DNA of 64,000 nt from an uncultured bacterium (GCA_964482725.1 CAYZYT010000001.1:186061-250060); one strand, 5' to 3'; positions 5,788 to 64,000 are shown, numbered from the stretch's first letter. Numbers and translations are program-made. The notes: generated from the letters alone by a model not told the origin.

Positions 5788-5797
5788 AAAACCTCTG

Positions 5798-5872
5798 GCC
5801 ACACGTCACAGGCCACATGCCACACGATGGTTTTTCGTGTGTCCTTGTAGCTTTGTGACATTCCTGTGACCT
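5798..5872. repeat. Structured element family F5 (CACATGCC.CACGA...TGTGTCCTTGT.GC.TTG), copy A, immediately upstream of the uvrB start.
   Basis: About 45 nt are alignable with copy B at 59806..59880, upstream of ispE. It contains an inverted repeat. Confidence 0.5.
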
Positions 5873-5874
5873 GT

Positions 5875-6765
5875 TCAATCGATCAAAAGAGAGAAATCGA
5901 CGGCTTTGACGGAATGGGTGAGAGACCCGACGGAGATAGTGTCCACCCCGGCGGCAGCGAACTTGCGGACATTCTCGAAGGTAATACCGCCCGAGGCTTC
6001 GAGGTTGACCCCGGGAGCTTCCTTGCGTACGATCTCCACCGCCCGCTTGGCTTCTTTAGGCGAAAAATTGTCGAGGAGAATAACCTTGGGACGCAACCCG
6101 ATCGCTTCCCAAAGCTCGCCGAGACTTCGCACTTCAATCTCGAAAGCGCCGGGATGGCGCCGGAGTTTTTTGAGGTCCCCGTGGATCCGGTGGTTCTCTT
6201 TGATAAAGATAAACTCATCAAGCCCCTGCCGGTGGTTCCGGCCGCCCCCCACCTGCACGGCCACCTTTTCCAGCTCACGCCAGATCGGGGTGGTCTTGCG
6301 GGTGTCCAGAATAAACGCCGGATATTTTTTGACACGGTTCACGAATTGACGCGTCTTGGTCGCGATCCCTGAAAGATGCCCGATAAAATTCACCATCGTC
6401 CGCTCGGTCTTGAGGATCGAGCGGATATTTCCTCGCATTTTAAAAACGATCTTCCCCGGTCGGAGCTTACCGCCGTTATGCACCCGGAATTCGAGCTTCA
6501 CTTGGGGGTCGACGATCTTAAAGATCTCCCGGACGAGACGCTCCCCGCAGAAAATGCCGTGTGCCTTGGCGATCACGCGGGCCGTTCCCCGAGCATGCGG
6601 GGGGATCAGCAAATTGGAAGTAACGTCTCCCTGCCCGATGTCCTCATGAAGCGCCTCCTTGAGAAAGCCAAGCGTCCGGCGCGACACCGGCAACGGATGG
6701 CCCGGGAAACCGCCTTTAGAAACTGGCGAGTTGGCTGTGGTAGGATACGAGAAGTTTTTTGGCAT
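5875..6765 (-). CDS. nadC: Nicotinate-nucleotide (quinolinate) pyrophosphorylase.
   Basis: A NadC domain is recognisable across the C-terminal 280 aa. The Met start at 6765 overlaps the valS 3' end by about 50 nt. The upstream part of the ORF-track frame is not NadC-like, and a GTG/TTG start further downstream is possible. Confidence 0.7.
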   Translation of the reverse strand: MPKNFSYPTTANSPVSKGGFPGHPLPVSRRTLGFLKEALHEDIGQGDVTSNLLIPPHARGTARVIAKAHGIFCGERLVREIFKIVDPQVKLEFRVHNGGKLRPGKIVFKMRGNIRSILKTERTMVNFIGHLSGIATKTRQFVNRVKKYPAFILDTRKTTPIWRELEKVAVQVGGGRNHRQGLDEFIFIKENHRIHGDLKKLRRHPGAFEIEVRSLGELWEAIGLRPKVILLDNFSPKEAKRAVEIVRKEAPGVNLEASGGITFENVRKFAAAGVDTISVGSLTHSVKAVDFSLLID

Positions 6766-9577
6766 CGGCAAGTTTCTCTTTCTCTTTTTCCAGGATCTCT
6801 TTCGGAGCTCTTTCGGCGAACGACGGGTTCTCAACTTTTTTACGGATAGTCTCGATCCACTGCTCTGTTTCCAGGATCTTTTTCTGGAGACGTTTTCTCT
6901 CCTCTTCCGGGTCCAGAACTCCCTCGAGCAGGATAAAGGCATCAAAGGCTGCAAAGGAGTTGGCCGCCACGGCGCCCTTTTTCTCGAATTCACGCACACA
7001 AGAAAGTTCCGCGAGCCGTCCCAGCACTTTTACCTCACGCTCGAAAGCGCGCAGGGTCTCCAACGTTCCCTGCTCCTTGCAAACAACGACCGCTTTGAGT
7101 TTATCGGTCGGAGAGATCTTGTAGCGGACCCGGAGATCCCGGAGACCGATCACCGCTTCCTGCAAGAGCCCGATGGCTTTCTGAGCTTCCCCATCGTGGA
7201 ATTTCATTTCCTCTTCGTGCGGCCACGGCGCGAGCATGATGGATTCGGGCCATGGACCCGATCCAACCTGGCAGGTCGAATTAATCCGACCTGCCAGGTT
7301 GGATGGGTGGGCTTTTTGCTTAAAGGTCTGCCAGATCTCTTCGGTGATGAACGGCATAAAAGGATGCAGAAGCCTCAGCATCCGCTCACAGACAAAGAAT
7401 AGGACCTTCTGCGTCTGCAATTTGAGAGCGGCATCCTCCGACAGGACCATGGGTTTCGCGAGCTCGATATACCAATCGCAGAAATCATCCCAGACAAAGT
7501 GATAAAGCTCGGTCGCCGCCTGGGCAAGGCCGAATTGGGAAAGATGCTTTTCGATCATCGCGGCTTTTGCCTCAAGCTGTGACAGGATCCAGCGGCTCGG
7601 AAGCGACAACTTGATGTTTTTGAATTGCGCCGGATCCGTGGAGGCTTCCTGAAACCCTTCGAGCTGCATCAGGACGAACCGGCAGGCGTTCCAGACCTTG
7701 GTGGCAAAATTGCGCCCCATCTCGAACTTCTCCCGGGAAAGATAAACATCCTGCGCGGAAAGCATCACGAGGCTGTAGCGGAGGGCGTCGGCCCCCATCT
7801 CCTCGATCACTTCAAGCGGATCGATGGAATTCCCGAGCGACTTCGACATCTTCAGCCCGCTCGCCGCGCGCACCGTGCCATGGATATTAATTTGGGTAAA
7901 CGGGACCTCCCCCATGAATTCGAGCCCGGCCATGATCATGCGCGCCACCCAGAAAAAGATGATCTCTGGAGCGGTGACAAGCGCCGAGGTCGGATAGAAT
8001 TTCTTCAGATCCTCGGTTTTCGCGGGCCAACCCAGCGTCGAGAACGGCCAGAGCCAGGACGAGAACCAGGTGTCGAGAACGTCCTCGTCGCGTTTGATGT
8101 CCTTTGAACCGCAGTGGGGACATTGAGTGATATCTTCACGAGACACAATCGCTCCGTCAGACTGGAGACTAGAGACTGGAGACTGGCGCTTCTGGTCTGT
8201 GGTCTTTCCAGTTTGCGACTGCGCGCATTTTGCGCAGTACCAAACTGGAAGCCGATGCCCCCACCAGATCTGGCGCGAGATGCACCAATCGCGGATCCCG
8301 TGAAGCCAGTTCAGATAAACCTTGGTCCAGCGGTCCGGAAAGAAAACTGTTTTCCCCTGTTCGTGGGCCTTCAGCGCCTTCTCGGCCAAAGGCTGCATCT
8401 TCACGAACCACTGTTTGGAAAGATACGGCTCCACGACGGTGTCGCAGCGATAGCAATGGCCGACCGCGTGCAGATGCGAGTCGCGCCGGACAAAAAGCCC
8501 CTGCGCTTCCAGGTCCTGAAGGATCTTTTTACGCGCTTCAAACCGGTCCATGCCTTGATACGGTCCGCCGTGCTCGTTGATCTTCGCGTCCGGCGTCATC
8601 ACATTGATCTGCTCGAGATTGTGCCGGTGCCCCATCGCAAAGTCATTGGGATCATGCGCCGGCGTCACTTTCACAATGCCGGTCCCGAATTCGGGGTCCA
8701 CAAAATCATCCGCGATCACCGGGATCTCGCGGTTCACAAGCGGCAGCAGGACTTTCTTCCCGATCAGGTGTTTGTAGCGGGGGTCGGTCGGATGCACTGC
8801 GACCGCGGTATCGCCCAACATGGTTTCGGGACGGGTCGTCGCGACCACAACGTGGTCGATGCCGAGTTTGTCGAGTACAGGGACAGGTCCGCTTTTGCTT
8901 GCAGGACCTGTCCCTGTGACGATCGGATACTTGAGGTGATAAAGCCCACCTTGCATGTCCTTGTGGGCGGCCTCTTCATCGGAAAGCGCTGTCTGGCAAC
9001 GAGGACACCAATTGATGATGTAGTTCCCGCGATAGATCAGTCCACGCTCGTAAAGCGTGACGAACGCCTCGCGCACCGCTTTGGAAAGGCCTTCATCCAT
9101 GGTGAACCGCTCACGGGTCCAGTCGCAGGAAGCGCCGAGCCGGCGGAGCTGGCGCGTGATGGTCGAGCCGTGCTCGTGCTTCCATTTCCAGACTTCTTCG
9201 AGGAATTTTTCGCGGCCGACATCCCAGCGAGTCTTTTTTTCTTTGGCGAGCTTCTTCTCAACCACATTCTGCGTCGCGATCCCCGCGTGATCGACCCCCG
9301 GCACCCAGAGCGTGTCCCGGCCCTTCATGCGGTTCCACCGGATGAGAATATCCTGGATGGAACTGTTGAGCGCGTGGCCCATATGCAGGATGCCTGTGAC
9401 ATTGGGCGGAGGGATGACGATAACATAAGACTTGGGACTTGAGACTTGAGACTTGAGCTTCGGATCTCTGGGCTCTGGGCTCTGGTCACTCGTCGGTTTG
9501 AAGTAGCCCTTCGCTTCCCAGAGGGTGTACCACTTCGTCTCGACTTCTTTGGAGTTGTATTGTTTGTCCAATTCCAT
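6716..9577 (-). CDS. valS: Valyl-tRNA synthetase, carrying three in-frame repeat/palindrome insertions.
   Basis: Class I motifs (PPPNVTG.LHMGHA, KMSKS), a zinc knuckle and a C-terminal coiled coil. It is 953 aa, slightly longer than typical. Confidence 0.9.
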   Translation of the reverse strand: MELDKQYNSKEVETKWYTLWEAKGYFKPTSDQSPEPRDPKLKSQVSSPKSYVIVIPPPNVTGILHMGHALNSSIQDILIRWNRMKGRDTLWVPGVDHAGIATQNVVEKKLAKEKKTRWDVGREKFLEEVWKWKHEHGSTITRQLRRLGASCDWTRERFTMDEGLSKAVREAFVTLYERGLIYRGNYIINWCPRCQTALSDEEAAHKDMQGGLYHLKYPIVTGTGPASKSGPVPVLDKLGIDHVVVATTRPETMLGDTAVAVHPTDPRYKHLIGKKVLLPLVNREIPVIADDFVDPEFGTGIVKVTPAHDPNDFAMGHRHNLEQINVMTPDAKINEHGGPYQGMDRFEARKKILQDLEAQGLFVRRDSHLHAVGHCYRCDTVVEPYLSKQWFVKMQPLAEKALKAHEQGKTVFFPDRWTKVYLNWLHGIRDWCISRQIWWGHRLPVWYCAKCAQSQTGKTTDQKRQSPVSSLQSDGAIVSREDITQCPHCGSKDIKRDEDVLDTWFSSWLWPFSTLGWPAKTEDLKKFYPTSALVTAPEIIFFWVARMIMAGLEFMGEVPFTQINIHGTVRAASGLKMSKSLGNSIDPLEVIEEMGADALRYSLVMLSAQDVYLSREKFEMGRNFATKVWNACRFVLMQLEGFQEASTDPAQFKNIKLSLPSRWILSQLEAKAAMIEKHLSQFGLAQAATELYHFVWDDFCDWYIELAKPMVLSEDAALKLQTQKVLFFVCERMLRLLHPFMPFITEEIWQTFKQKAHPSNLAGRINSTCQVGSGPWPESIMLAPWPHEEEMKFHDGEAQKAIGLLQEAVIGLRDLRVRYKISPTDKLKAVVVCKEQGTLETLRAFEREVKVLGRLAELSCVREFEKKGAVAANSFAAFDAFILLEGVLDPEEERKRLQKKILETEQWIETIRKKVENPSFAERAPKEILEKEKEKLADAKKLLVSYHSQLASF
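7263..7302. repeat. 40-bp near-perfect palindrome (CCAACCTGGCAGGTCGAATT|AATCCGACCTGCCAGGTTGG, one mismatch) inside valS coding sequence, in-frame.
   Basis: The reverse complement of the second half equals the first half except at one position. It encodes an extra peptide (..SNLAGRINSTCQVG..) near the conserved SIMLAPWP region. Confidence 0.7.
8158..8248. repeat. Composite insertion in valS: heptamer tandem repeats (GAGACTR x4, TGGTCTG x2) plus an imperfect palindrome of about 41 bp (CCAGTTTGCGACTGCGCGCATTTTGCGCAGTACCAAACTGG).
   Basis: It sits between the two Cys pairs of the ValRS zinc knuckle and encodes QSQTGKTTDQKRQSPVSSLQSDG. It is homologous to the element at 9428..9490. Confidence 0.6.
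9428..9490. repeat. Heptamer tandem-repeat insertion near the valS N-terminus (GACTTGR x4 then CTCTGGG x3).
   Basis: Encodes SDQSPEPRDPKLKSQVSSPKS between FKP and the PPPNVTG/HIGH region. It is the same repeat type as 8158..8248. Confidence 0.6.
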
Positions 9578-9586
9578 AAATACCGG

Positions 9587-9657
9587 AAGGAGGAGGGAGG
9601 ATGGCGGAGGGCGTCAAACCAGGCTTGTCGCCATCCTCCCTCCGCCTTCCGCCATCC
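9587..9657. repeat. GGATGG/CCATCC-rich hairpin element, family F2, copy 1. A 12-bp stem GGGAGGATGGCG / CGCCATCCTCCC flanks a loop of about 22 nt.
   Basis: Lies between the valS start and the cimA stop. Related copies are at 16449 and 23999. Confidence 0.55.
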
Positions 9658-11216
9658 TATCCTTTGTGTAATTTATATTCGATCGCTTCGACGAGGGCTT
9701 TCCAGCTGGCTTCGATGATGTTTTCGTGGACACCGACCGTGGTCCAGGTTTTTTGTTTATCCTGGAATTCGATAAAGACGCGTACCTTCGCCGCCGTTCC
9801 GGCCTCGGAATTGACGACGCGCACTTTATAATCCGTCAGGTGGATCTCATCGATCACGGGATACGTTTTGGCGAGCGCTTTCCGCAGCGCGGAATCGAGC
9901 GCGTTGACCGGCCCGTCCCCGTCCGCCGATTCAAAATGTTCGACGCCCTGAGCCGTGACTTGCACGTCTGCGATCGAGCGTGGGCTTCCGGCGCCGATCT
10001 CTTCGGTGCGCACGGAAACCGCGCCGGGTTGGAAGAACGGCTTGTATTTACCGAGGACCCGCTGCACGAGAAGCTCAAAACTCGCTTCCGCAGCTTCAAA
10101 TTGATACCCTTCGTATTCCAGGCGCTGGATCTCGGCGAGGATCTTCTTGGCCTCAGAAGAATCTTTCTGGAATTTCATTTCAAGTTCCTCGGCCTTGATC
10201 ATGATATTGGTCTTCCCCCCGAGCTCGGAGACAAGATACCGGCGGTAATTCCCGAGAGCTTTGGGCTCCACGTGCTCGTAGGTCTTGGCGTTCTTTACCA
10301 TGGCGTTGATGTGCACGCCGCCTTTGTGCGCGAACGCGGAGCGGCCCGTGAACGGCTGATTATTGACCAGAGGCATATTGCAAACCTCGGCCACATAATG
10401 CGAGAGCTGGGTCAGCTCCTTCATTTTCTTTGCGGGAAAGCACGGAACCTTCATCTTGAACTGGAGGTCCGGGATGATGCTTGCAAGGTTCGTGTTCCCG
10501 CAGCGCTCGCCGTAACCGTTGATCGTTCCCTGCACGAGAACGCATCCTTCGCCCACCGCCTGGATGGAATTGGCGACCGCAAGCTCGGAATCATTATGAC
10601 AGTGGATGCCGAGCGGCGTTTTCACGGAGCGCTTTACCTTCTGGATCGCGTGACGCACTTCATGCGGCAGGCTTCCGCCATTCGTATCACAGAGTGAAAG
10701 ATTGTTGGCGCCCGCTTTCGCGGCCTGCTGAAGCGTTTTCAGCGCGTATTCGGGATTCGCCTTGAACCCGTCAAAAAAATGTTCGGCATCATAGATCACT
10801 TCGATCTTCCGGTCCTTGAGGTACGCGACCGTTTCATAGATCATCAGGAGATTTTCTTTGAGCGTCGTCCGGAACACTTCAGTCACGTGCATGTCCCAGG
10901 ATTTCCCGAACACCGTCACGACCTTGGTGCCGGCTTCGAGCAGCGCTTTGATCTGCGAGTCTTCTTTGACTTTCATGTGGGCGCGGCGCGTGGAGCCGAA
11001 TGCCGCGATCTTGGAGTGTTTGATCCCGGCCTTCTTGACCGCGAGGAAGAATTCCATATCCTTCGGATTCGAACCCGGCCATCCGCCTTCGATGTAATGG
11101 ACACCGAACTGATCGAGCCGCTTCGCGATCAGCACCTTATCGTGGGAGGACAGACTGATCCCCTCAGCTTGTGAGCCATCACGGAGTGTTGTGTCGTAGA
11201 AAAGAATCTTCTTCAT
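9657..11216 (-). CDS. cimA: (R)-citramalate synthase (CimA clade of the LeuA/HMGL family).
   Basis: Motifs LRDGSQ, IEGGWPGSNPKD and HxH, plus a C-terminal LeuA-dimer regulatory domain. Start chosen at MKKILFYDTT. The ORF track extends to 11237. Confidence 0.7.
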   Translation of the reverse strand: MKKILFYDTTLRDGSQAEGISLSSHDKVLIAKRLDQFGVHYIEGGWPGSNPKDMEFFLAVKKAGIKHSKIAAFGSTRRAHMKVKEDSQIKALLEAGTKVVTVFGKSWDMHVTEVFRTTLKENLLMIYETVAYLKDRKIEVIYDAEHFFDGFKANPEYALKTLQQAAKAGANNLSLCDTNGGSLPHEVRHAIQKVKRSVKTPLGIHCHNDSELAVANSIQAVGEGCVLVQGTINGYGERCGNTNLASIIPDLQFKMKVPCFPAKKMKELTQLSHYVAEVCNMPLVNNQPFTGRSAFAHKGGVHINAMVKNAKTYEHVEPKALGNYRRYLVSELGGKTNIMIKAEELEMKFQKDSSEAKKILAEIQRLEYEGYQFEAAEASFELLVQRVLGKYKPFFQPGAVSVRTEEIGAGSPRSIADVQVTAQGVEHFESADGDGPVNALDSALRKALAKTYPVIDEIHLTDYKVRVVNSEAGTAAKVRVFIEFQDKQKTWTTVGVHENIIEASWKALVEAIEYKLHKG

Positions 11217-11244: not shown

Positions 11245-11309
11245 GTGTCAGGGTGTCAAAGTATCAGAGTTTCAAAACTTTGACACTTTGATACTCTGAG
11301 ACTTTGATA
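11245..11309. repeat. Intergenic element family F3 (GTGTCAGGGTGTCAAAGTATCAGAGTTTCA...), copy X.
   Basis: A near-identical unit is present in inverted orientation at 61485..61544. It lies between lysC and cimA. Confidence 0.55.
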
Positions 11310-12527
11310 CTATCTTTTGCCGAGTCCGAATGCCTGGTGGATGGCGCGGGCGGCAAGCTTGCCTTTGTCGCCGGCGACGACGACCGAGATCTTGATCTCG
11401 GAAGTGGAGATCATATCGATATTGATCTTGTTCTTGGCCAGGGTCGAGAACATCTTGGACGCGATCCCGGAGTGCGAGCGCATGCCGATCCCGACGATCG
11501 AGACTTTCGCGACATTCTCGTCACAGACGACGTCTTTGACGCCGAGCTTCTTGGCGTTTGTCTTCACGACCTTCATAGCTTTCACAAGCTCGTTCTTGAA
11601 AACAGTGAAAGAAATGTCCGTGGAATTCGTGTTGGTCTTGTTCTGGATGATCATATCCACGTTCACGTTCGCGTCCGCCAGGGTCTGGAACACCTTGGCC
11701 GCCACGCCCGGACGGTCCGAAACCCCGAACAGGGTGATCTTGGCTTCATCTTCCGCTAACGCAACACCGCTGACGACGACTTCTTCCATTTTCTTGTTCT
11801 CCTTTGTAATAAGAGTTCCTTTGACTTCCTTATGGGAATTGCAGACCCAAATGGGCATGTTGAACTTTTTTCCGACTTCGATCGAGCGCGAGTGCATGAC
11901 CTTCGCCCCAAGCGACGCGAGCTCCAGGATCTCATCGTAAGTGGCGACATCCATCTTTGTCGCCTCCGGGATCACGCGAGGGTCTGCCGTATAGATGCCG
12001 TCCACGTCCGTATAGATCTCGCAATGTTTTGCCTTGAGCGCCACGGCAAGCGCCACGGCCGTCAGGTCGGAACCGCCGCGGCCGAGCGTTGTGATCTCGC
12101 CGGAGGGCGTCTGGCCCTGGAACCCGGCCACGATCACGATCTTCCCAGCAGCGAGGGCCTTTTTAATGCGATCCGCGCTGATATTCTGAATGCGGGCCTT
12201 GCTGTGAAATTCGTCGGTAATGATCCCCACCTGTGAACCTGTGAAAGAAACCGCCTCATGTCCCAATTTATGGACCGCCATCGCCAAAAGCGCGATCGAG
12301 ACCTGTTCCCCCGTAGAAAGAAGCATATCCATCTCACGTTCTTTGGGGTCCTTATTGATCTGATCGGCAAGCGTGATGAGATCATCGGTCATATCGCCCA
12401 TGGCGGAGACCACCACGACGACCTTGTTCCCGGCCTTTTTGGTTTTGATGACGCGCTGGGCCACTCTTAAGATTTTTTCCGCGTTGGCGACCGAAGAGCC
12501 GCCGTATTTTTGAACGATCAGTGACAT
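11310..12527 (-). CDS. lysC: Aspartate kinase (two C-terminal ACT domains).
   Basis: Motifs KYGGSSV and VVVVSAMG, with ACT repeats. Confidence 0.85.
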
Positions 12528-17134: not shown

Positions 17135-20100
17135 TCAGTCCTGGCTGATGATACGCTCGGCGCCCAACAGGCAGAACGCGGTGCCTGCCAAAGAACCACC
17201 ACAGGCATTTGTCAAAACGAGGGCTTCCTGGACCGGAGCCGGGATCACTTTCCGTTTGAAGGATTCGCTGCGAAAAGGCAAGCGCCCCTTAGGAGAGCTT
17301 TTCTTGCGGGATTTTGAAGAAGACCCAAGCGACGGATCACTTCCCTTGTTATTACTTGGCGACAGGATCGCGGCCTCAAGCATCCCCGCGGTATCTTCTT
17401 TCTCCGCTTTTGCGGATTGATTCCGCCTCTGAGCCGCCCAGAAATCAGCGGCGGCAAACTTAAGCGATGGCTTCACGCTAACCCTCGGGGCAGAAGACGG
17501 AAGCGATACGGTCTGAGGCACTATCCCGGCGGCAGAAACGGCCGACGGTAATATTTCTTGCGCCATGATCGCAGGCTCCAGAGGGATCTCAACCGACGAT
17601 GCTATGAGAGGCGCAGCCTTTAACGCCACCGCCGCAAGAGGTGAAGGAACGCCTGCAGGCGCCACGATAATCCGTCTGATCTTAGCGGACGGGAAACCTT
17701 GGGCTTCCGGAAAGCTGACGACCATTTCTGAAATGTTCCAGTAAAGCGCGTCCGCCGGAATTGTAAAAATAAATTCCTTCGGAACGCCTCCCGTAGCCGG
17801 AAGAACGAATGGCTCCGAATAAACCGCCATGTTGTTGCTCCAGGAATGCTTCAGCTCGAACTTCGCACCCGTGATCGGCGTATCCGACTGGTAGGTGATC
17901 CGGATCTGGCGGTCCGACGCCCTGACGCTTTCGCTTAGTTTCCATGAAGTCGCTTTATACGCATCCCAATTAAAATTAGAAGCAGGCTTCTGCCCGATCA
18001 CAGACACGGGCGTTTGGGAATTCCAGATCGATTCGAGCTTCGCCGCTAACCCTTTATTCTCAAGATACCGGGTCATGTAATCCGGCCCCGTCCCAGTCAT
18101 CCCCAAGATGAACGTCGCGTTGTTATTGAAGACCTGGTCGGTGACCACCAAATTATTGTTCATGTTCTTGCCTTCCCAGAGGCCATGATCCGAAACCAGA
18201 TCTCGGTGGTTCGCGATAAGCTCCTGCAGAAGAGCTTCCACCTCCGCGGGACGGAACATATGCGCCGCACCCAAGTTGTAAACGGACGGCGTGGTTTCAA
18301 CGGAGAAAGACTGATCAAAGGCGATCTCCTTGATGCCCAGCGGGAAGTTGTAAACGATCTCGTAGCTACCATCCATGACATGAAAATTACGGATGGTCAT
18401 GTCCAAGGGTCCGCCGGCTTCACTGCCCGTTGCAAAAACAATTTCATCCAGATCGTTCAGAAAAGACTCCGCCGGGAGATTGATCGGCGCCGTACGCAAC
18501 GCCCCACCCGTATTCTCCAACGTTAAATTTATCGTGAGAACCGTTACGAGATCATTTCCGTATTTTTTCTTGAAATCGATCTTTGCCCCAAGAATCGGGG
18601 TGTGTGAAGAATAGTTCAATAGCAGGGTAAGGCCCGAAACGTCCATGCCCGATTCGACGAATGCCACGCCGATCCCTCGATTGTCCGTACTCGTGACATG
18701 CAACCGGGTCGCAGATTCCCGCTCCACAGTCATATCCCCGGCCCAATTGAACGTCACGACCGGACCTTGCAAAAGATCATGCGCCTGCACATCAAAACTT
18801 GCCGAAAGAAAACCCGGCTGTTCGTTCCGGTCCGCAAAATCGAGCTGAACATCCGTGTAGGTCTCGAGCATCTTTTTGAGATCCGGGTTCGTGAACTCCG
18901 GCATCAGAAGTGCGGGCCAATACATCTGGAAAGCCCCGCTGAACGGCGCCACGACTTGTCTCGTGGTGAGATCCTGCATGGTGTAGGAATGCGTCGAAAA
19001 ATTCAGTTTGGCGTAGGCGCTTGCCGGGAAGGTGTTGCCATACTGCAAGATAAGGAACAGAAGCGGCGCACTGCTTTCCGCTCCGAAATAATCGATCGTC
19101 CCTGACAAACTATGGTCCTGAATCTTCATGGTCCTGGAAAACGTATTCGTCGCGCCGTTATACATGGCCAGATAGCCGGCTCTTTGGTTTTCGATAAAGG
19201 TATTGATCTTGCCAAGGATGCCGCCGGCCCCGTGAATGGTCGTGTTGGTCGACAGAGACTCATCAAGCAGCGCGCCGTAGGCTACGGCCAGCGCATTGGT
19301 AAAATTCGTGTTGTCCTCAAAACTTACTTGCTGGCCGTAATCGCCACTCATCCGGATCCAATCGGATCCTGTATATTCAAACCATGGGAAAAGCCCCATA
19401 AAAGCAAGACTTTGATCCGCCTGGTCCACGAGAAGATGATCCATCATCGTATTCAAACGACTGATCGCTTCCGTTTTCGAGATCTTGGACGTGACAAGAT
19501 CCCCCGCCGCGATGGTCGCAAGCAAATACGCATAAAATCCGAAATTGGAAGGCTGGGTCTTTGCCTTCTGGAGCCATCCTTCCACGGGGTATTCGTGCGT
19601 CGTTTCGATCATGCCGAATGCGGGATCGAAATAAAGCAAGTTGATCTGCGTCAAAAGATCGGCGGCCGTCGTCATTTCCTGGGCTACGATCCGGTAATAA
19701 ACCGTGTTGCCGCGGTCGGCCATAGGATCCGGACAACTGATCTCGCCATATTGGTCGGCGACAAAAGAAAGCCCCTCCGGCTGCCAATCATTCGACATGA
19801 GACTCGTCCTGAACTGGACCTGATAACGCACGCCCTTCATCGCCCGGTCGAATTTGATCGTCCAGCTATTGGAAGAATTCGCGAATTGGGTGATCACGGG
19901 ACGCACGATCTCGATCGACGGCAGCGGATCTGTCGATCCGGCGGGCTCGATCGCCACGCGCTCAAGCGCTCCGTCTGCAGCATTAAAATAGCTCGTGATG
20001 TTCTTCGCGTTGGTCTTTGCGATAAGAACCCCGGAGGCATCGTATTCATAACGCATCAGCCGCTGAGTCCGGGCGACATCCGAGAATGCATCCTTGTATT

Positions 20101-21883
20101 GAACAACGCTTGTCCCGGGATGGTAGAAATAAGAGAACGCTATCTCACCCTCGGCGTTCGCGGTCTGCCGCTTCGCCCAGTCGCAAAGATTGGCAGCCGT
20201 ATCTTCGTAATGGTAATAAAAGTTCCCATCCGTATCCGCATTCAGAAGCGTTTTAGACTCGAGCCTTCCTGAGGCGTGGTAGGCATAGTTCGTCGTGTTC
20301 ACAAGAACGCCAGCGGCATTGTACTCGGACATTACAAGCAACACATCCGTCGCAGAGTAACTCTTGATGAACCTGGCCTGGTGGGTGTTCGGGAAATAGG
20401 ATTCAAAAATCTGATATGTCCCATCTTGATAGAAATTCTCCGTGAAGCCTTCGCTGTAGACAAAACGCCAGCCGGTCAGCTCTCCGTTCGAACGGATCTC
20501 TTCCACGGTGTAAGTCGCGCCCGACCGTTCATGAACGGAAAAAGCGCGATCCAGCGCAGAGATCAGCACCTCGGGCAGAAAAGCACCGCGGCCAAAAGCG
20601 GGTGAGGTTTCAGGCACTGAATAATCCTCGTTAGCGGCATCGACGAACTGAGGATCAGCAAGAACGTTCCCGCCGGTCCAGCCTTCCCCTGTTTTGGGGC
20701 TGATCGCCGGAGGAAGGTGCTGACCCGTAGCATCTCCTTTTTCCGTGTTATGAAAGAGGACATTCCCTTCCACCGCGAGTGCAGGCGTGGCGGTTTCTTC
20801 CCAGATCGACTGGACGATCTGGTGGGCCAAGATGTTGTTCCGCACCGCCGGGGCTTGCCCATTGAGGATCTGAATGCCGATCTTACTGGAAAAGCTTTCC
20901 GCAATTCTGACCCGGTACCACCTCCCGCTCACGTCAAAAGGCCCCGGGCTTGTCGCGGAGCCGTCATCCATCCAGAAGGTACTCGCCTCGGATCGATCCG
21001 CTAAAACAAGGAGATCTCCTAAAGGATCCTGAACCCGGGCACGGACCCAAGTCTTTCCACAATCATTGGAATATTCGATGTAGTAAGCATAGGCTCCCTG
21101 AGGATCCCGGATCTCGAGTTGGATCCCCTGCCCCGCCCTATAACGGAGCCCTGTGAGCTGGATGCTTTGCTCTGCCTCATAGCCTGTGATCGTGTTGTAG
21201 GCGATCGTATTTCCGGTTTTAGGTTCTTTGATGGCGATCGGATTCCCGCGGAAAAGATTTGCTTCGATCAGGATATCCGAGCCATTTCCGGAGACATAAA
21301 TCCCGGCACTTAAATTGAACAGGATCTTATTCTTGCGGACATGAACCTGGTCGCCTTCGATCTTGATCCCCGCCGCGGGGGTCTGCCCCAGCTCGTCGCG
21401 AGCGCCCGTCACGGTCAGATTTTCAATTGTGTTTTTCCCAAGCGCCCGGATCACGGAGGCGCCGGGCACATAATCGCCGTGAATGATCGTGGTCTCTGAA
21501 TTTTCTCCCCGGAGGTTCACCCCCTCCTTGAGCGTGATGCTTTCATGATAAGTTCCGGCATGAACATAAATAATATCTCCTGCCTCGGCCTGCTCGATGG
21601 CATCCTGGATCTTATCTCCTGGATGGACCTCAAGGGCTCCCTCAGGGATCGGATCGCCTTGGGCTTGAAGGTTCGGGGAGCCTAACGACAGAGGATTGGA
21701 GTTCTGGACCGCAACACCGGAGGGAATTTCATTCTGAGGAGCGGGTACGGTCTGTGCATTGGCCTGCTCCAGGGTAAGCGTCGGCACGGGTCGCTGAGCA
21801 TCGTTAAGGGTCAACTCGTTTGTGGCGGCAAGGCCGACGGGCACAGGGATGCTGCTGAAGATAAAAAAAACGGCTGTCCCCAT
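17135..21883 (-). CDS. Giant secreted multidomain protein (about 1583 aa). N-terminal right-handed beta-helix (pectate-lyase fold), then YD/RHS-like repeats, then a large (alpha/alpha)6 glycosidase-like (DUF3131-like) domain, with a C-terminal low-complexity tail.
   Basis: Signal peptide MGTAVFFIFSSIPVPVGLAA. Beta-helix-like repeats (NLTVTG, IYVSGNGSDILIEANLF). YD-like repeats. A sugar-hydrolase-like middle region. The ORF-track start at 22015 is an extension. Confidence 0.65.
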   Translation of the reverse strand: MGTAVFFIFSSIPVPVGLAATNELTLNDAQRPVPTLTLEQANAQTVPAPQNEIPSGVAVQNSNPLSLGSPNLQAQGDPIPEGALEVHPGDKIQDAIEQAEAGDIIYVHAGTYHESITLKEGVNLRGENSETTIIHGDYVPGASVIRALGKNTIENLTVTGARDELGQTPAAGIKIEGDQVHVRKNKILFNLSAGIYVSGNGSDILIEANLFRGNPIAIKEPKTGNTIAYNTITGYEAEQSIQLTGLRYRAGQGIQLEIRDPQGAYAYYIEYSNDCGKTWVRARVQDPLGDLLVLADRSEASTFWMDDGSATSPGPFDVSGRWYRVRIAESFSSKIGIQILNGQAPAVRNNILAHQIVQSIWEETATPALAVEGNVLFHNTEKGDATGQHLPPAISPKTGEGWTGGNVLADPQFVDAANEDYSVPETSPAFGRGAFLPEVLISALDRAFSVHERSGATYTVEEIRSNGELTGWRFVYSEGFTENFYQDGTYQIFESYFPNTHQARFIKSYSATDVLLVMSEYNAAGVLVNTTNYAYHASGRLESKTLLNADTDGNFYYHYEDTAANLCDWAKRQTANAEGEIAFSYFYHPGTSVVQYKDAFSDVARTQRLMRYEYDASGVLIAKTNAKNITSYFNAADGALERVAIEPAGSTDPLPSIEIVRPVITQFANSSNSWTIKFDRAMKGVRYQVQFRTSLMSNDWQPEGLSFVADQYGEISCPDPMADRGNTVYYRIVAQEMTTAADLLTQINLLYFDPAFGMIETTHEYPVEGWLQKAKTQPSNFGFYAYLLATIAAGDLVTSKISKTEAISRLNTMMDHLLVDQADQSLAFMGLFPWFEYTGSDWIRMSGDYGQQVSFEDNTNFTNALAVAYGALLDESLSTNTTIHGAGGILGKINTFIENQRAGYLAMYNGATNTFSRTMKIQDHSLSGTIDYFGAESSAPLLFLILQYGNTFPASAYAKLNFSTHSYTMQDLTTRQVVAPFSGAFQMYWPALLMPEFTNPDLKKMLETYTDVQLDFADRNEQPGFLSASFDVQAHDLLQGPVVTFNWAGDMTVERESATRLHVTSTDNRGIGVAFVESGMDVSGLTLLLNYSSHTPILGAKIDFKKKYGNDLVTVLTINLTLENTGGALRTAPINLPAESFLNDLDEIVFATGSEAGGPLDMTIRNFHVMDGSYEIVYNFPLGIKEIAFDQSFSVETTPSVYNLGAAHMFRPAEVEALLQELIANHRDLVSDHGLWEGKNMNNNLVVTDQVFNNNATFILGMTGTGPDYMTRYLENKGLAAKLESIWNSQTPVSVIGQKPASNFNWDAYKATSWKLSESVRASDRQIRITYQSDTPITGAKFELKHSWSNNMAVYSEPFVLPATGGVPKEFIFTIPADALYWNISEMVVSFPEAQGFPSAKIRRIIVAPAGVPSPLAAVALKAAPLIASSVEIPLEPAIMAQEILPSAVSAAGIVPQTVSLPSSAPRVSVKPSLKFAAADFWAAQRRNQSAKAEKEDTAGMLEAAILSPSNNKGSDPSLGSSSKSRKKSSPKGRLPFRSESFKRKVIPAPVQEALVLTNACGGSLAGTAFCLLGAERIISQD

Positions 21884-22219
21884 ACTTATCAATTTCAATT
21901 TATTGAAATGGGGGCGGCCCAAACTACATTTTTTGGAACAGAAATTAAAAGTTTGGGCGGTTAAAAGCGAAGTCATTTTACAGAAAAATCTTTTCAGCGA
22001 AGAAGGGGATCCCATGGAGTCTTTTTGTCACCTTTTCTCATCAGGAATATAGTTGCCGAAGGCTAACACACCGTCTGAAAAATGGCAAATAGCCCTCCCA
22101 GGAATCTTGGAAGGCAAGTCGCTCATTGTTTGAGATGATCCGTATCGCTATGAATTGCTAGAAGTGAATTCCTGGGACCTCAGGACAAAAATCGTTCTTT
22201 TGTATGGAGCGAAAGGAGA

Positions 22220-23998: not shown

Positions 23999-24072
23999 CC
24001 GGATGGTGGATGGTGGATAATGCCCCTCAAAACAAAAAAACCGATCCGCCATCCGCCCTCCGCCATCCGACT
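23999..24072. repeat. Family F2 element, copy 3 (GGATGGTGGATGGTGG ... CCGCCATCCGCCCTCCGCCATCCG), in the msbA leader.
   Basis: Shares GGATGGCGGAGGGCG with copy 1. Confidence 0.5.
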
Positions 24073-53204: not shown

Positions 53205-53948
53205 TTACTTGCCTTCTTTCCCCGGAGCTGCGGCAGTTTTTCCTGCAGCAGGTGCGGCAGGTTTGGCTCCGGCAGGCGCGGCCTTCGCGGGAGAGCCTTC
53301 TTCGCCTTCTTTATCCTTCTTGCCCTTCTCCATCACCTCGGGCTCAGCAGCGCCCTCTTCAGCAGGCTTCACTTCCTCCTCCCGAGGAGGATGGATTGCA
53401 AGAACCACGTCCTCCGGCGAAAGCATGCACTTGATCCCCGCAGGGAGGGTCAAGTCCTTCACCTGGACGGCGTCGTTGATCTTCATGGCCTTTGTTTCGA
53501 TCTCAATCTTTTCCGGGATCTGCGTCGGCAAACACTCCACCTCGATCTCGCGATGGACCAGATCGAGCGACCCGCCCTCCTTGATACCAGGCGCCTCTTC
53601 AGGATGAAGAAGGACCACCGGCACTTTGACCTTGATCTTTTCGGTCAGCGAGATGACCATGAAATCAATGTGATCGATCTTGTCGGTGACGGGATTATTC
53701 TGGATCGCCTTGATGCGACACGTTGATTCCTTCAGCTTTACGCCTTCGACCTGAAGCGTGATCAGAACGTTGGCGCCGGCCTTGGTGTGGATCGCCTTAA
53801 GAAATGCGCGATCCGGCACTTCGATGGCAAGAGGTTTCATGCCATGGCCGTAGACCACCGCAGGAAACATTTCGTTACGACGGACCGCGCGCGCCTTGCT
53901 GGTCCCGTCCGGAGTGCGTGCCTTAGCTTGCAGTTCAAAAGTTTGCAT
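53205..53948 (-). CDS. rplY: 50S ribosomal protein L25 / general stress protein Ctc (long form).
   Basis: L25 N-terminal and beta-barrel domains, then an A/P/K/E-rich tail. Confidence 0.85.
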   Translation of the reverse strand: MQTFELQAKARTPDGTSKARAVRRNEMFPAVVYGHGMKPLAIEVPDRAFLKAIHTKAGANVLITLQVEGVKLKESTCRIKAIQNNPVTDKIDHIDFMVISLTEKIKVKVPVVLLHPEEAPGIKEGGSLDLVHREIEVECLPTQIPEKIEIETKAMKINDAVQVKDLTLPAGIKCMLSPEDVVLAIHPPREEEVKPAEEGAAEPEVMEKGKKDKEGEEGSPAKAAPAGAKPAAPAAGKTAAAPGKEGK

Positions 53949-59802: not shown

Positions 59803-59805
59803 TTA

Positions 59806-59880
59806 AAGACACAAAGCCACAAGGACACATGCCCCACGAGCATTTCTTTTGTGTCCTTGTGGCCTTGCAACTTTGTGAAC
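59806..59880. repeat. Family F5 element, copy B. A 14-bp perfect stem GCCACAAGGACACA / TGTGTCCTTGTGGC sits upstream of ispE.
   Basis: Alignable with 5798..5872 upstream of uvrB. Confidence 0.55.
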
Positions 59881-61475: not shown

Positions 61476-61484
61476 AAAAAATGC

Positions 61485-61544
61485 GTGTCAAAGTATCAAC
61501 GTTTCAACGCATCATGAAACTCTGATACTTTGATACCCTGACAC
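61485..61544. repeat. Family F3 element, copy Y. The palindrome is built from two inverted copies of GTGTCA(GGGTAT)CAAAGTATCA..GTTTCA.
   Basis: The reverse complement of the right arm, GTGTCAGGGTATCAAAGTATCAGAGTTTCA, matches 11247..11276 almost exactly. Confidence 0.55.
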
Positions 61545-62546
61545 TTACTTTATTTGCAGCGCGGGATCGCCTGTCATATTAAGTTTCGACCGTTTTCCTT
61601 GTTTGTAAAGCTCAAACCCTCGGCGCGCGATCATGGCTGCGTTGTCGGTCGAAAGAACAAACGGCGGGAACCAGACCTTGATCCCCTTTGCTGCGCCGTC
61701 CCGCGTCAGTTTTTCGCGAAGATACGAATTCGCGCTCACGCCCCCGCCGACCACAATATCGGAAGCGCCTTTAAATTCGCAGGCATCAAGCGCCTTCTCG
61801 ACAAGCCACCCGATGGCAGCATGCTGAAAACTTGCGGCCATATCTTTTTGAGACAACGCGTCAGGGTTCGGCCTCCCGGTCTTCGGATCCTGATAATGAT
61901 AAAGCACGGCCGTTTTTACGCCACTAAAACTAAAGCTGAAGCGCCCCTCTTGTTTCGGTCTTGTGAATTGAAAAGCCCGCGGGTTTCCTTCTCGCGCCAG
62001 CTTATCCAGGATCGGCCCGCCGGGATAACTGAGCCCCATGATCTTCGCGACCTTGTCGTAGGCCTCGCCCACAGCGTCATCCACCGTCTCGCCCAGAATA
62101 TGGATCTTCCCTTTTTCGCAGAACGTGAGCATCGTGTGTCCGCCGGAAACCAAAAGACCGATGTAACGCTTGGGTTCCGGCGCCCCAAAAAAATTCGCCA
62201 CGAGATGAGCTTCCATATGATTTACGCCGACCAGCGGGATCTCGAGCTGATACGCGAGCGCCTTGGCGAACGCGACGCCGACAAGGAGTGAGCCCATGAG
62301 ACCGGGACCCTGGGTCACGGCAATGAGATCAAGGTCCTTGGCTTTGATCTTGGCTTCATGAAGCGCTTCCTCGAACACGCATTGGATCTGTTCCATGCAA
62401 TGCCGCGAGGCGATCTCGGGCACCACCCCGCCGAATTTCTTGTGCCGGAACAAACTGGAGGACACGACATTGGAAAGGATCGTATCTTTACCTTTTAGTA
62501 TCGAACACGACGTTTCGTCGCAGGAGGTTTCTATCCCGAGCGTCAA
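61545..62546 (-). CDS. tsaD: tRNA N6-adenosine threonylcarbamoyltransferase. The probable start is a TTG that gives MLTLGIETSCDETS. The ORF-track Met at 62618 is an extension.
   Basis: Kae1/TsaD motifs throughout. The canonical N-terminus begins at LLTLGIETSCDE. Confidence 0.8.
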   Translation of the reverse strand: MTLGIETSCDETSCSILKGKDTILSNVVSSSLFRHKKFGGVVPEIASRHCMEQIQCVFEEALHEAKIKAKDLDLIAVTQGPGLMGSLLVGVAFAKALAYQLEIPLVGVNHMEAHLVANFFGAPEPKRYIGLLVSGGHTMLTFCEKGKIHILGETVDDAVGEAYDKVAKIMGLSYPGGPILDKLAREGNPRAFQFTRPKQEGRFSFSFSGVKTAVLYHYQDPKTGRPNPDALSQKDMAASFQHAAIGWLVEKALDACEFKGASDIVVGGGVSANSYLREKLTRDGAAKGIKVWFPPFVLSTDNAAMIARRGFELYKQGKRSKLNMTGDPALQIK

Positions 62547-62626
62547 CAAAGCTGACGCTCGCGTGGAACGGCTAACGGTTAACGTTGAACGCTTTAGTTT
62601 TTTCGTTCCCCGTTCCACGTTACCCG

Positions 62627-64000
62627 TTACCCGTTAACGAGCTTCTGCATTAGAAGCTCGTTAACTATTTTTGGATTCGCTTTTCCGCCAGTTTCTTTCA
62701 TCACCGCGCCGACGAGAGCGCCGAGGGCCTTTTGTTTTCCGGCCTTGAATTCCGCGACCGCAGTCGGGTTCGCCGCGATGGATTTTTCGACCGCTTTTTC
62801 GATCAAGCCGGTGTCCGAAACCTGTGTCAGGCCTTTTTCTTTGACGATGCTATCAGCATCTTTCCCGGTCTCGAACATCATTCCAAGCACGTCCTTTGCG
62901 GTCTTCCCGGAGACGGTCCCGTTGTCGATCAGCTTGAGAAGTCCGGCAAAAGCTTTCGCCGTGACGAGGCAGTGTTCGATCCCAAGACCTTTACTGTTCA
63001 GGACCGCAAGCAGTTCAGTCAGGACCCAGTTGCTGGCAAGTTTTGCCAGGGACAGGTCCTCTTTTTTCAGGACCTGTCCCTGAGTGACAACCGCCTCAAA
63101 ATATTCCGCGAGTTTTTTATCTTCCACAAGCGTATACGCGTCATATTCAGAGAGAGCGAATTCCTTTATGAACCGCTTCGCGCGTTCGAGCGGAAGTTCG
63201 GGTAAAGTTTTTCTAATTTCCTCGACCACCTCACGGGACAAGGTGAACGGCACCAGATCCGGCTCCGGGAAATACCGGTAATCATGGGCTTCTTCCTTTG
63301 AGCGCATGGAAAAAGTCGTACCCTTAGTGTCATTCCAAAGCCGCGTCTCCTGCACGATCGTCTCCCCGGCTTCGCAGGCTTCGGTTTGCCGTTCGATCTC
63401 GTACTGGATCGCTTTCTGAACCATCTTGAAAGAATTCAGATTCTTGATCTCAACCTTGGTCCCGAGTTTTTCCTGGCCTACGGGTCGCACCGACACGTTC
63501 GCGTCGCAGCGGAGGCTTCCCTTTTCCATATCGCAGTCGCTTACCTCCACATATTGGAGGATCGCTTTGAGCGCGGTGAGGTAATCATAAGCTTCCTGCG
63601 GGCTGCGAAGGTCGGGCTCAGAGACGATCTCAAGAAGCGGAATACCGCCGCGGTTGTAATCCACCAGGCTTCCGTCCGTGATCCCTTCATGCAGAAGTTT
63701 CCCGGCATCTTCTTCCAGGTGCGCGCGCGTGATGCCGATCCTCTTGACGACGAACAACTCAGGGACAGGTCCTCTTTTTTCAGGACCTGTCCCTGTCTCG
63801 ATATCAAGCCACCCTTTCCCATTCACGGGCATGTCAAACTGCGAGATCTGGTAGGCCTTGGGAAGATCCGGATAAAAATAATTTTTCCGATCAAATTTGA
63901 GCCGCTCTGCCACTTTACAATTAAGAGCGAGCCCCACCCGAATCCCGAGTTTCAAGGCCGCCTCGTTTAAGACGGGCAACGACCCCGGCCAACCGAGACA
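62627..64000 (-). CDS. gatB: Asp/Glu-tRNA amidotransferase subunit B, partial. The N-terminus lies beyond the window end. It carries two identical in-frame 36-bp palindromic insertions.
   Basis: GatB homology starts at about residue 50 and continues in-frame through the last base of the window. Confidence 0.9.
   Translation of the reverse strand, partial: CLGWPGSLPVLNEAALKLGIRVGLALNCKVAERLKFDRKNYFYPDLPKAYQISQFDMPVNGKGWLDIETGTGPEKRGPVPELFVVKRIGITRAHLEEDAGKLLHEGITDGSLVDYNRGGIPLLEIVSEPDLRSPQEAYDYLTALKAILQYVEVSDCDMEKGSLRCDANVSVRPVGQEKLGTKVEIKNLNSFKMVQKAIQYEIERQTEACEAGETIVQETRLWNDTKGTTFSMRSKEEAHDYRYFPEPDLVPFTLSREVVEEIRKTLPELPLERAKRFIKEFALSEYDAYTLVEDKKLAEYFEAVVTQGQVLKKEDLSLAKLASNWVLTELLAVLNSKGLGIEHCLVTAKAFAGLLKLIDNGTVSGKTAKDVLGMMFETGKDADSIVKEKGLTQVSDTGLIEKAVEKSIAANPTAVAEFKAGKQKALGALVGAVMKETGGKANPKIVNELLMQKLVNG
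63047..63082. repeat. 36-bp perfect palindrome CAGGGACAGGTCCT-cttttttc-AGGACCTGTCCCTG inside gatB, in-frame. It encodes QGQVLKKEDLSL.
   Basis: 14-bp perfect arms. Identical to 63760..63795. Confidence 0.8.
63760..63795. repeat. Second identical 36-bp palindrome inside gatB, in a different frame. It encodes TGTGPEKRGPVP.
   Basis: Exact 36/36 match to 63047..63082. Confidence 0.8.

Follow-up and report, generated by a model that had tools for sequence, protein, structure and literature searches.

Several described systems come close to the repeats treated here, which are heptamer hairpins found in valS, the gene for valine--tRNA ligase (ValRS), and elsewhere in a 64,000-nucleotide (nt) stretch of DNA from an uncultured bacterium (GCA_964482725.1 CAYZYT010000001.1:186061-250060), hereafter the window. 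Heptamer arrays of the short tandemly repeated repetitive (STRR) type, analysed by Rehm et al. in 2015, have the unit GGGAATC in Xanthomonas and GGGGA(C/T)T in Nostoc PCC 7120, form 70-75 convergent pairs per Xanthomonas genome, lie within 50 bp of the ends of open reading frames (ORFs), with about a third being intragenic in Nostoc, and vary markedly between close relatives, no function being known for them (PMC4692102). An idea cited by the same authors is that the size of the polymerase active site makes heptamers slip easily (PMC4692102). In Rickettsia, palindromic repeats known as Rickettsia palindromic elements (RPEs; Ogata et al. 2000, 2002) occur in frame in housekeeping genes, where they are translated into additional stretches of peptide; they are about 100-150 bp long, specific to Rickettsia, and have a conserved peptide for each family, RPE-1 to RPE-10 (PMC10969869).

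Here, we have compared the window and its relatives with these systems and suggest, with rather more confidence than doubt, that each heptamer block in valS is a copy of a dispersed hairpin repeat, resembling repetitive extragenic palindromes (REPs) and RPEs, whose STRR-like heptamer arms have been remodelled by slippage and template switching. Extragenic by definition, REPs possess a conserved GTAG/CGTC tag tied to the RAYT transposase. A literature search for Omnitrophota, the phylum concerned, with repeats and hairpins found no description of such elements.

Two heptamer blocks in valS

The window comes from an uncultivated Candidatus Omnitrophota bacterium, and the nearest named relatives of its ValRS are Omnitrophota proteins. 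The gene is the single valS seen both in the window and in the syntenic loci and stands in a conserved, operon-like context; GC skew in the window marks the minus strand as the leading strand, so valS is co-directional with replication. Database searches with the window ValRS returned a 100% identical protein (P0001), encoded on a 356-kb NCBI contig, and hundreds of other Omnitrophota ValRS, and T. thermophilus ValRS 1GAX matched with E=9.5e-221. Proteins were compared in an alignment of 41 Omnitrophota ValRS, all 41 being full length, and nucleotides were compared in the valS DNA of the window and ten relatives (11 orthologues). L161 and L162 are independent ENA and Logan assemblies, and contig scans with ValRS matched almost exclusively distant phyla, the close matches being L001, L081 and L082. 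Lengths of ValRS range from 899 to 988 amino acids (aa) among Omnitrophota sequences that are 75-86% identical.

Each block in valS consists of about four heptamer units, a short loop and two to three units of a roughly complementary heptamer, which together make a hairpin. Tandem Repeats Finder resolved the block at site 1 into period-7 arrays of AGACTTG at 9428-9457 (4.3 copies) and CTCTGGG at 9466-9485 (2.9 copies, 100% match), and that at site 3 into AGACTGG at 8159-8186 (4.0 copies), after which TGGTCTG TGGTCTT follows at 8192-8205. The original prediction, an earlier reading of this DNA, had described both blocks and an adjoining palindrome, and its description agrees exactly with these arrays and with the palindrome arms; the hairpin form of the blocks and the wider population of hairpin repeats do not figure in it. 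Site 1 encodes QSPEPRDPKLKSQVSSPKS, placed between FKPTSD and YVIVIPPPNVTG before the HIGH strand, and site 3 encodes KTTDQKRQSPVSSLQSD between the two Cys pairs of the zinc knuckle (local translation ...CAKCAQSQTGKTTDQKRQSPVSSLQSDGAIVSREDITQCPHCG).

Compared with 1GAX, the window ValRS is longer in four regions: by about 14 residues ahead of the HIGH strand, by about 17 following KYPI, by about 17 between the Cys pairs of the zinc knuckle and by about 13 following WQTFK. Both blocks face gaps in distant Omnitrophota ValRS in the 41-sequence alignment, the places of the inserts are hypervariable gaps, and the site 1 block is also an insertion relative to L161. These alignments show that the heptamer blocks are insertions, predicted to be read through as part of the valS ORF. 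In-frame insertion at two valS sites had been claimed from the sequence and is borne out by the gaps, and the possibility that the blocks are conserved ValRS residues is dismissed by the orthologue alignment, in which they are not conserved and are missing from T. thermophilus and the distant orthologues.

The two blocks of the window are identical at 28/34 nt over the loop and right arm in a local alignment, a score matched by 0/300 shuffles. The same comparison gives 32/34 across arm, loop and arm in L162 (again 0/300 shuffles as high), and 26/29 in L164, 23/23 in L081 and a 61-nt alignment in L001 (0/300 each); the exceptions are L161, which has no site 1 block, L163, with a marginal score, and L165-L168, with different families at the two sites. 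Judged by sequence, the two valS heptamer blocks are paralogous copies, as had been proposed. A search for GAGACTKGAGACT allowing up to 2 mismatches gave 7 matches in the window against 2.0 expected, all of them inside the two blocks.

The blocks share several features with STRR-type heptamers: the 7-nt units run head to tail (4.3, 2.9 and 4.0 copies here), about four units are preferred and none of the arrays exceeds five, and the arrays form convergent (inverted) pairs near ORF ends that can fold into stem-loops and vary at conserved positions between close relatives. The L081 unit GGGGACT is identical to the Nostoc unit, and GGAGACT of the window is one base off. However, many unit families coexist here, octamers included, their non-repetitive loops are conserved within families, copies lie in frame inside essential genes, and the arms pair through G.U wobbles on one strand only. 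Unlike the G-rich STRR unit (GGGNATC / GGGGAYT), none of the window units GAGACTK, CTCTGGG and TGGTCTG provides four G3 tracts; GGGGACT or GGGACTC units occur only in the relatives L081 and L001. G-quadruplex formation was considered as a general explanation and rejected, since most unit families have no G tracts.

Turnover among relatives

At the zinc-knuckle site, L161 and L162 share the right arm and the palindrome of the window and carry exactly 21 nt, or three heptamers, more. Site 1 is occupied across genomes by different unit families, namely CCAGAGC/TCAAGTC, CCAGAGA, GTTCCCC, CACAGAC/GTGGACC, GGGACTC/CGAGTCC and GAGTCCC; L161 has no block there, although L162, its sister at a nucleotide distance of 0.105, has one. 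A comparison of L162 with the window shows CCAGAGA changed to CCAGAGC and CTCCAGT to CTCAAGT in every unit; such a unit-wide concerted change is, as read from these arrays, a signature of homogenisation within the array. In total six sites in valS are variable, and sites 4 and 5 hold other hairpins in other genomes. In L165, a palindromic insert at site 4 (aa alignment columns 550-581), CCCTCACCCCAACCCTCTCCCGGGGGGAGAGGGCAGGGTGAGGGGG, encodes PSPQPSPGGRGQGEGA after the conserved TLGWP motif, and L161 and L166 have other hairpin inserts at the same position.

In each of the genomes examined, a hairpin with periodic arms lies in the cimA-valS spacer, with families that differ: GGATGGN in the window, L162 and L164, GGTAAGY in L161, CGTTACC in L163, and GGGACTC in L001 and L081. 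The GGATGGC family, intergenic in the window, occupies valS site 3 in L168. An element of L161 (L161:3168-3217) and the cimA-valS spacer element of L001 are identical at 45/49 nt, including a non-repetitive 18-nt loop, at non-orthologous positions and in opposite orientation in two genomes whose valS distance is 0.24 substitutions per site. A further in-frame insert of about 84 nt with imperfect hairpins lies in uvrB of L161 (L161:14342-14437) and is missing from uvrB of the window; UvrB is 700 aa long in L161 and 669-676 aa elsewhere. Taken together, these comparisons show at the sequence level that the elements are hypervariable between close relatives and share families with intergenic copies; they are members of a clade-wide population of hairpin repeats that occupies intergenic spacers and several housekeeping genes. 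Some database ValRS proteins have false N-terminal extensions such as MVDGVWFLAPSARRLPPAVFN (L162:1170-1232; N-terminus of P0023), because a stop-free intergenic heptamer hairpin upstream of valS was taken into the gene call.

It had also been asked whether the blocks are an artefact of assembly or binning in which a repeat was put together wrongly, since the DNA belongs to a metagenome-assembled genome (MAG) and assemblers can collapse or expand tandem repeats. With a length of no more than 35 nt, however, the arrays do not exceed a read, the ORF is unbroken, similar elements occur in 11/11 orthologous loci, and the same block at site 3, with identical right arm and palindrome, is found in independent ENA, Logan, JGI and NCBI assemblies of different samples. 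Because independent assemblies carry the blocks, they are not an artefact, and we give this explanation practically no credence.

A second proposal concerns contingency, or phase variation: heptamer slippage would toggle valS or yield alternative forms of ValRS. The unit length is no multiple of 3, the arrays stand in coding DNA, and copy number differs among relatives. Yet the single clean copy-number difference amounts to 21 nt, all orthologues are in frame, valS belongs to the essential housekeeping genes and is the only valS seen in the window and the syntenic loci, the arrays are short (at most 4.9 units), and Rehm et al. argue against phase variation for analogous repeats (PMC4692102). 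A contingency locus is thus highly improbable. The earlier expectation that frame-preserving copy numbers matter agrees with the difference of three heptamers and with the full-length orthologues; its description of the blocks as a potential frameshift hotspot stands as a reasonable inference about mutation, but no frameshifted allele occurs among the 41 aligned orthologues and nothing suggests phase variation.

Palindromes, strand asymmetry and coding content

In addition to the two heptamer blocks, valS contains three palindromes, so that it has five hairpin-type insertions, all in frame. The palindromes fold far better than shuffles, with z of about -3.4 to -9 and equally on both strands, the lowest z values among them being those of a 111-nt stretch containing 8206-8250. 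In this palindrome, read on the sense strand, the left arm consists of the conserved LPVWYC codons and the right arm (variable AQSQTG) is an inverted copy of it, and the native PVWYC codons make up half of the 41-nt palindrome, which folds at about -28 kcal/mol on either strand. Among 8 orthologues, compensatory pairs were observed (CG:4/UA:4 and GC:5/UA:3) with 90% of cells paired, and the covariation score was reached by 0/500 shuffles; L001 and L081 have a different palindrome on the same CxxC centre, likewise with paired differences. The palindrome at site 2 is missing from L161, L163, L164, L081, L167 and L168, is represented by a variant in L162 and a short remnant in L166, and is replaced by different insertions in L001 and L165. 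That at site 6 has 25-nt arms that are 92% complementary (-45 kcal/mol, z=-8 to -9); it occupies the same position in L161 and L164, where across the three genomes 7/24 pairs have changed on both sides and 95.8% are paired, and it is missing from L162, L163, L001, L081, L165, L167 and L168.

The pairing of these palindromes could be kept by selection on structure or by mutational copying from arm to arm. We favour the mutational route, template switching at quasipalindromes, because these are symmetric hairpins located in coding DNA and made up in part of native codons. Quasipalindrome template-switch mutagenesis is a process known from E. coli genetics, and it is not known to have shaped essential genes throughout an entire clade. 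The likeness lies in arms that stay complementary by paired changes and extend into flanking native sequence; the difference is that template switching is a mutational process and not a family of elements.

The heptamer blocks behave differently from the symmetric palindromes, as their pairing relies on G.U wobbles and is found chiefly on the plus strand, which is antisense to valS. Predicted folding energies of the antisense and sense strands are -19.6 and -10.7 kcal/mol for site 1 (9424-9492), -20.9 and -10.9 for site 3 (8152-8206), -45.3 and -25.3 for site 3 of L161/L162, and -55.9 and -34.9 for site 1 of L164. The sense strand of the heptamer elements is A+C-rich with 14% T, and the peptides encoded are strongly hydrophilic, with a Kyte-Doolittle mean of -1.19, compared with -0.10 for the three reverse-orientation frames. 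A fully complementary second arm would encode peptides rich in G, L, W and V; the sense strand instead shows T-to-C and G-to-A differences, by which the peptide becomes rich in S, P and Q while the antisense strand is left with G.U pairs. Selection acting on the loop of the protein thus suffices for the asymmetry, and antisense RNA need not be invoked. Two other accounts of the asymmetry were set aside: avoidance of stop codons as the main constraint on orientation was rejected, as 32/51 reverse-orientation frames are open and hydrophilicity fits better, and a replication-strand explanation was not adopted, as intergenic members have no consistent strand bias.

This bears on whether the hairpins are selected RNA structures, either an antisense RNA or terminator across valS or elements affecting mRNA stability or pausing. 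The hairpins are about twice as stable on one strand, consistently across orthologues, the palindromes covary, and some intergenic members, such as 61484-61545 with its T8, are terminator-like. However, the favoured strand in valS is antisense and lacks a T tract, strand preference is inconsistent among intergenic members, orthologous sites are replaced wholesale by other families, and selection for hydrophilic, T-poor coding sequence accounts for the asymmetry; in the window, Rfam detected two tRNAs only and no structured RNA family at any hairpin. We consider selected RNA structures an improbable explanation.

Dispersed families and how they may spread

Hairpins with periodic arms are distributed across the window (Table 1), and those between genes belong to a small number of families. 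It contains 12 period-7 arrays, compared with a mean of 1.4 (maximum 5) in 30 dinucleotide-preserving shuffles, and 6 period-8 arrays, compared with 1.2. The density of period-7 arrays is 2.71 per 10 kb in the close clade and 0.74 in 157 loci of other phyla, and their size in the window and close loci is 2.1-4.9 units, with a median of about 3.9. The GGGACAGGTCC palindrome has three copies in the window, one in valS and two in gatB, with unrelated flanks, both gatB copies being insertions relative to T. maritima GatB 3AL0. An exact search for GGGACAGGTCC in 168 loci of relatives and other phyla gave 0 matches, so this palindrome variant is specific to the window genome.

Table 1. Position and structure of valS and of hairpin and palindromic elements in the window
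Feature	Position	Strand	Details
valS (valine--tRNA ligase)	6716-9577	minus	953-aa ORF; host gene of five hairpin-type insertions
Site 1 heptamer hairpin element	9427-9490	minus	plus strand: (GACTTGR)x4.3, loop GCTTCGGAT, (CTCTGGG)x2.9
Site 3 heptamer hairpin element	8158-8205	minus	plus strand: (GAGACTR)x4, loop GCGCTTC, (TGGTCTK)x2
Palindrome centred on first CxxC	8206-8250	minus	arms 8206-8224 / 8232-8250, 19 nt, 89% complementary
Site 2 palindrome, GGGACAGGTCC family	8877-8917	minus	perfect 14-nt arms; encodes TGTGPASKSGPVPV; z=-6.4/-6.7
Site 6 palindrome	7258-7307	minus	two tandem copies of ~17-nt palindrome CCAACCTGSCAGGTYGG; encodes PSNLAGRINSTCQVGSG
GGGACAGGTCC-family palindrome in gatB	63047-63082	minus	36 nt, in frame; encodes QGQVLKKEDLSL
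Second, identical GGGACAGGTCC palindrome in gatB	63760-63795	minus	36 nt, in frame; encodes TGTGPEKRGPVPE; frame same as valS copy
Intergenic hairpin, cimA/valS	9584-9658		heptamer arms GGANGGN x4 / CGCCNTC x4; -53.8/-52.5 kcal/mol, z=-6.7/-5.4
Intergenic periodic-arm hairpin, nadC/uvrB	5797-5880		units GGCCACA / TGTGWCC
Intergenic periodic-arm hairpin, aspartate kinase gene/cimA	11245-11311		octamers GTGTCAAA / ACTTTGAT
Periodic-arm hairpin, GGATGGN family	24001-24069		5' edge of ABC transporter ORF
Intergenic periodic-arm hairpin	59805-59874		octamers AAAGMCAC / TGTGKCCT; family as 5797-5880
Intergenic periodic-arm hairpin	61484-61545		GTGTCAAA octamer family as 11245-11311; T8 follows on minus strand, hence resembling an intrinsic terminator
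Intergenic CGTTMCC heptamer hairpin	62570-62665		with adjoining perfect 14-nt palindrome; downstream of gatB

The points of likeness to RPEs are small palindromic repeats of several families, lying between genes and in unrelated housekeeping genes, with insertions that appear compatible with protein function; those described here are likewise in frame, five in valS and two in gatB. Unlike RPEs, the Omnitrophota elements are 36-90 nt long, have tandem-heptamer or simple palindromic arms and turn over fast enough for orthologous sites to differ between close relatives; a relationship to RPEs in sequence is not expected. With REPs, REPINs and terminator-like MITEs (miniature transposable elements with inverted repeats; e.g., SPRITE) they have in common that they are short, imperfect palindromes, dispersed mostly after genes and without target-site duplication, and that some members resemble intrinsic terminators. 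In contrast to REP/REPIN, the copies studied lie inside valS and gatB, with related families being intergenic, and tandem-unit arms are not a REP feature; neither a GTAG/CGTC tag at the three GGGACAGGTCC copies nor a RAYT in the Pfam-scanned ORFs was seen. Inverted arms are present, but, in contrast to MITEs, filled and empty valS alleles show replacement and no duplicated target. The elements merge the STRR and RPE pictures and are distinguished by many unit families that are not G-rich, conserved loops, wobble-paired arms, very fast turnover and five inserts in one essential gene.

In the reading we prefer, the element would be a hairpin repeat of about 50-90 nt, each arm having about four tandem 7-nt units and the two arms being approximately complementary. 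Along with plain palindromes, these elements would form dispersed families in the Omnitrophota clade, mostly in short spacers after genes, while some copies would lie in frame where large housekeeping proteins have permissive surface loops, namely in ValRS, in GatB and, in one relative, in UvrB. They may arrive by a copy-and-paste step without target-site duplication, for which the candidate routes are ectopic gene conversion, template switching, and a transposase specific for hairpins whose gene lies elsewhere. The survivors would be only those insertions that keep the frame and have the C/A-rich, T-poor strand as sense, encoding hydrophilic loops of S/P/Q/T/K/D/R; good hairpin pairing, with G.U wobbles, on the antisense strand only would follow from this selection. 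Arrays would then change by replication slippage, the changes seen within the gene being frame-keeping ones such as three units (21 nt), and a sequence variant would come to occupy every unit of its array. The palindrome arms would be kept complementary by template switching within a strand (quasipalindrome correction), which could also extend an arm into native codons. Most probably the elements in valS are passengers, selfish or mutational, that the enzyme tolerates and that have no functional part in it.

Several results weigh against a dispersed, mobile repeat. Within the window the GAGACTK family is confined to valS, so that the case for its dispersal comes from relatives and from families other than this one. 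The inserts are predicted to be translated because the frames are intact, a candidate tryptic peptide of ValRS being QSPVSSLQSDGAIVSR, and an AlphaFold2 model based on the 41-sequence alignment (mean predicted local distance difference test score 60, predicted template modelling score 0.40) is too poor to confirm the inserts as surface loops. Where a valS allele is filled in one genome and empty in another, about 14-23 nt are replaced and there is no clean insertion, no target-site duplication was seen, the GGGACAGGTCC copies in valS and gatB having unrelated flanks, and the three copies are not flanked by a GTAG/CGTC tag. The Pfam scan of 40/50 called window ORFs detected no Y1_Tnp, RAYT-like or other transposase, the other 10 ORFs being identified by synteny or structure matches. 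A tree of the 11 valS genes comes close to a star, and gains and losses are therefore not separable from recombination or from each other. Finally, native codons make up the left arm of 8206-8250 and the outer arm of site 6, an observation that growth in place explains as well as insertion does.

Growth in place would require no mobility: slippage on 7-nt units and fold-back template switching would build hairpins at fragile sites and keep rebuilding them, and similar heptamers would appear at separate sites because the same units are mutationally favoured. Heptamer repeats are over-represented in bacteria generally, which has been attributed to polymerase slippage (PMC4692102), and a mild period-7 excess is also present in loci of other phyla. 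The arms made of native codons, the compensatory changes in arms, the concerted change of all units of an array, and the failure to find a transposase among the scanned ORFs or a target-site duplication are further points in its favour. On the other side, whole arm-loop-arm structures, including non-repetitive loops, recur at non-orthologous sites (45/49 between L161 and L001, 32/34 between sites 1 and 3 of L162), gatB contains two identical copies of a 36-nt palindrome that is found a third time in valS, and the sisters L161 and L162 have wholly different families in the same spacer. Growth in place seems rather unlikely to us.

It is possible, although we hold it tentatively and with more doubt than belief, that in this Omnitrophota clade a process not described before acts on hairpins regardless of their sequence, either a hairpin-directed copy-and-paste enzyme or a peculiarity of replication or repair that combines frequent template switching with tolerance of palindromes. 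Such a process would keep creating, homogenising and replacing hairpins with 7-8-nt periodic arms, even in essential genes, and neighbouring sites of one genome would converge on the same family while orthologous sites diverge.

If the elements are dispersed repeats, as we prefer, the notion of selfish DNA inside protein-coding genes, best known from Rickettsia, would be extended to a free-living uncultivated phylum and connected with the heptamer repeats, so far unexplained, of xanthomonads and cyanobacteria. A single essential gene that has five inserts, whose loops vary at six places among close relatives and whose coding palindromes evolve by compensatory change would provide a natural system for questions about the tolerance of proteins to random loop insertions, the spread of hairpin repeats, and slippage and template switching in coding DNA. 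In practical terms, the inserts inflate variation in protein length, create false N-terminal extensions in gene calls and can mislead marker-gene alignments and phylogenies in Omnitrophota MAGs.

Three loci outside the clade, L012, L121 and L055 (Atribacteria, a metagenome contig and Gemmatimonadota), have 8-15 period-7/8 arrays per 10 kb, above the Omnitrophota clade; richness in heptamer arrays therefore recurs in unrelated lineages. A protein search with a synthetic peptide of the element matched solely P0121-P0123, three tiny hypothetical proteins on unrelated metagenome contigs that consist mostly of SPVSSLQ repeats, and says little on spread into other proteins. As SPVSSLQ is encoded by (CCAGTCT)n, the same heptamer array exists elsewhere and gets called as ORFs.

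Some minor features of the neighbourhood were also observed. About 50 nt are common to the 3' end of valS and the start of nadC, the gene for quinolinate phosphoribosyltransferase (window about 6716-6765; L161:12807-12856), an overlap kept in L161, L162 and L164-L168, the two genes being separate in L163. A 1626-aa ORF without a Pfam match lies at 17135-22015 on the minus strand between an ABC transporter gene and a small ORF, and the segment of about 5 kb that carries it is missing from the syntenic loci L161 and L163. At 113-210, a 51-nt tandem repeat (1.9 copies, 80% match) lies inside a left-edge ORF that has no Pfam match, and at 53229-53329 period-24 and period-9 tandem repeats occupy the 5' (N-terminal) end of a ribosomal protein L25/TL5 ORF.

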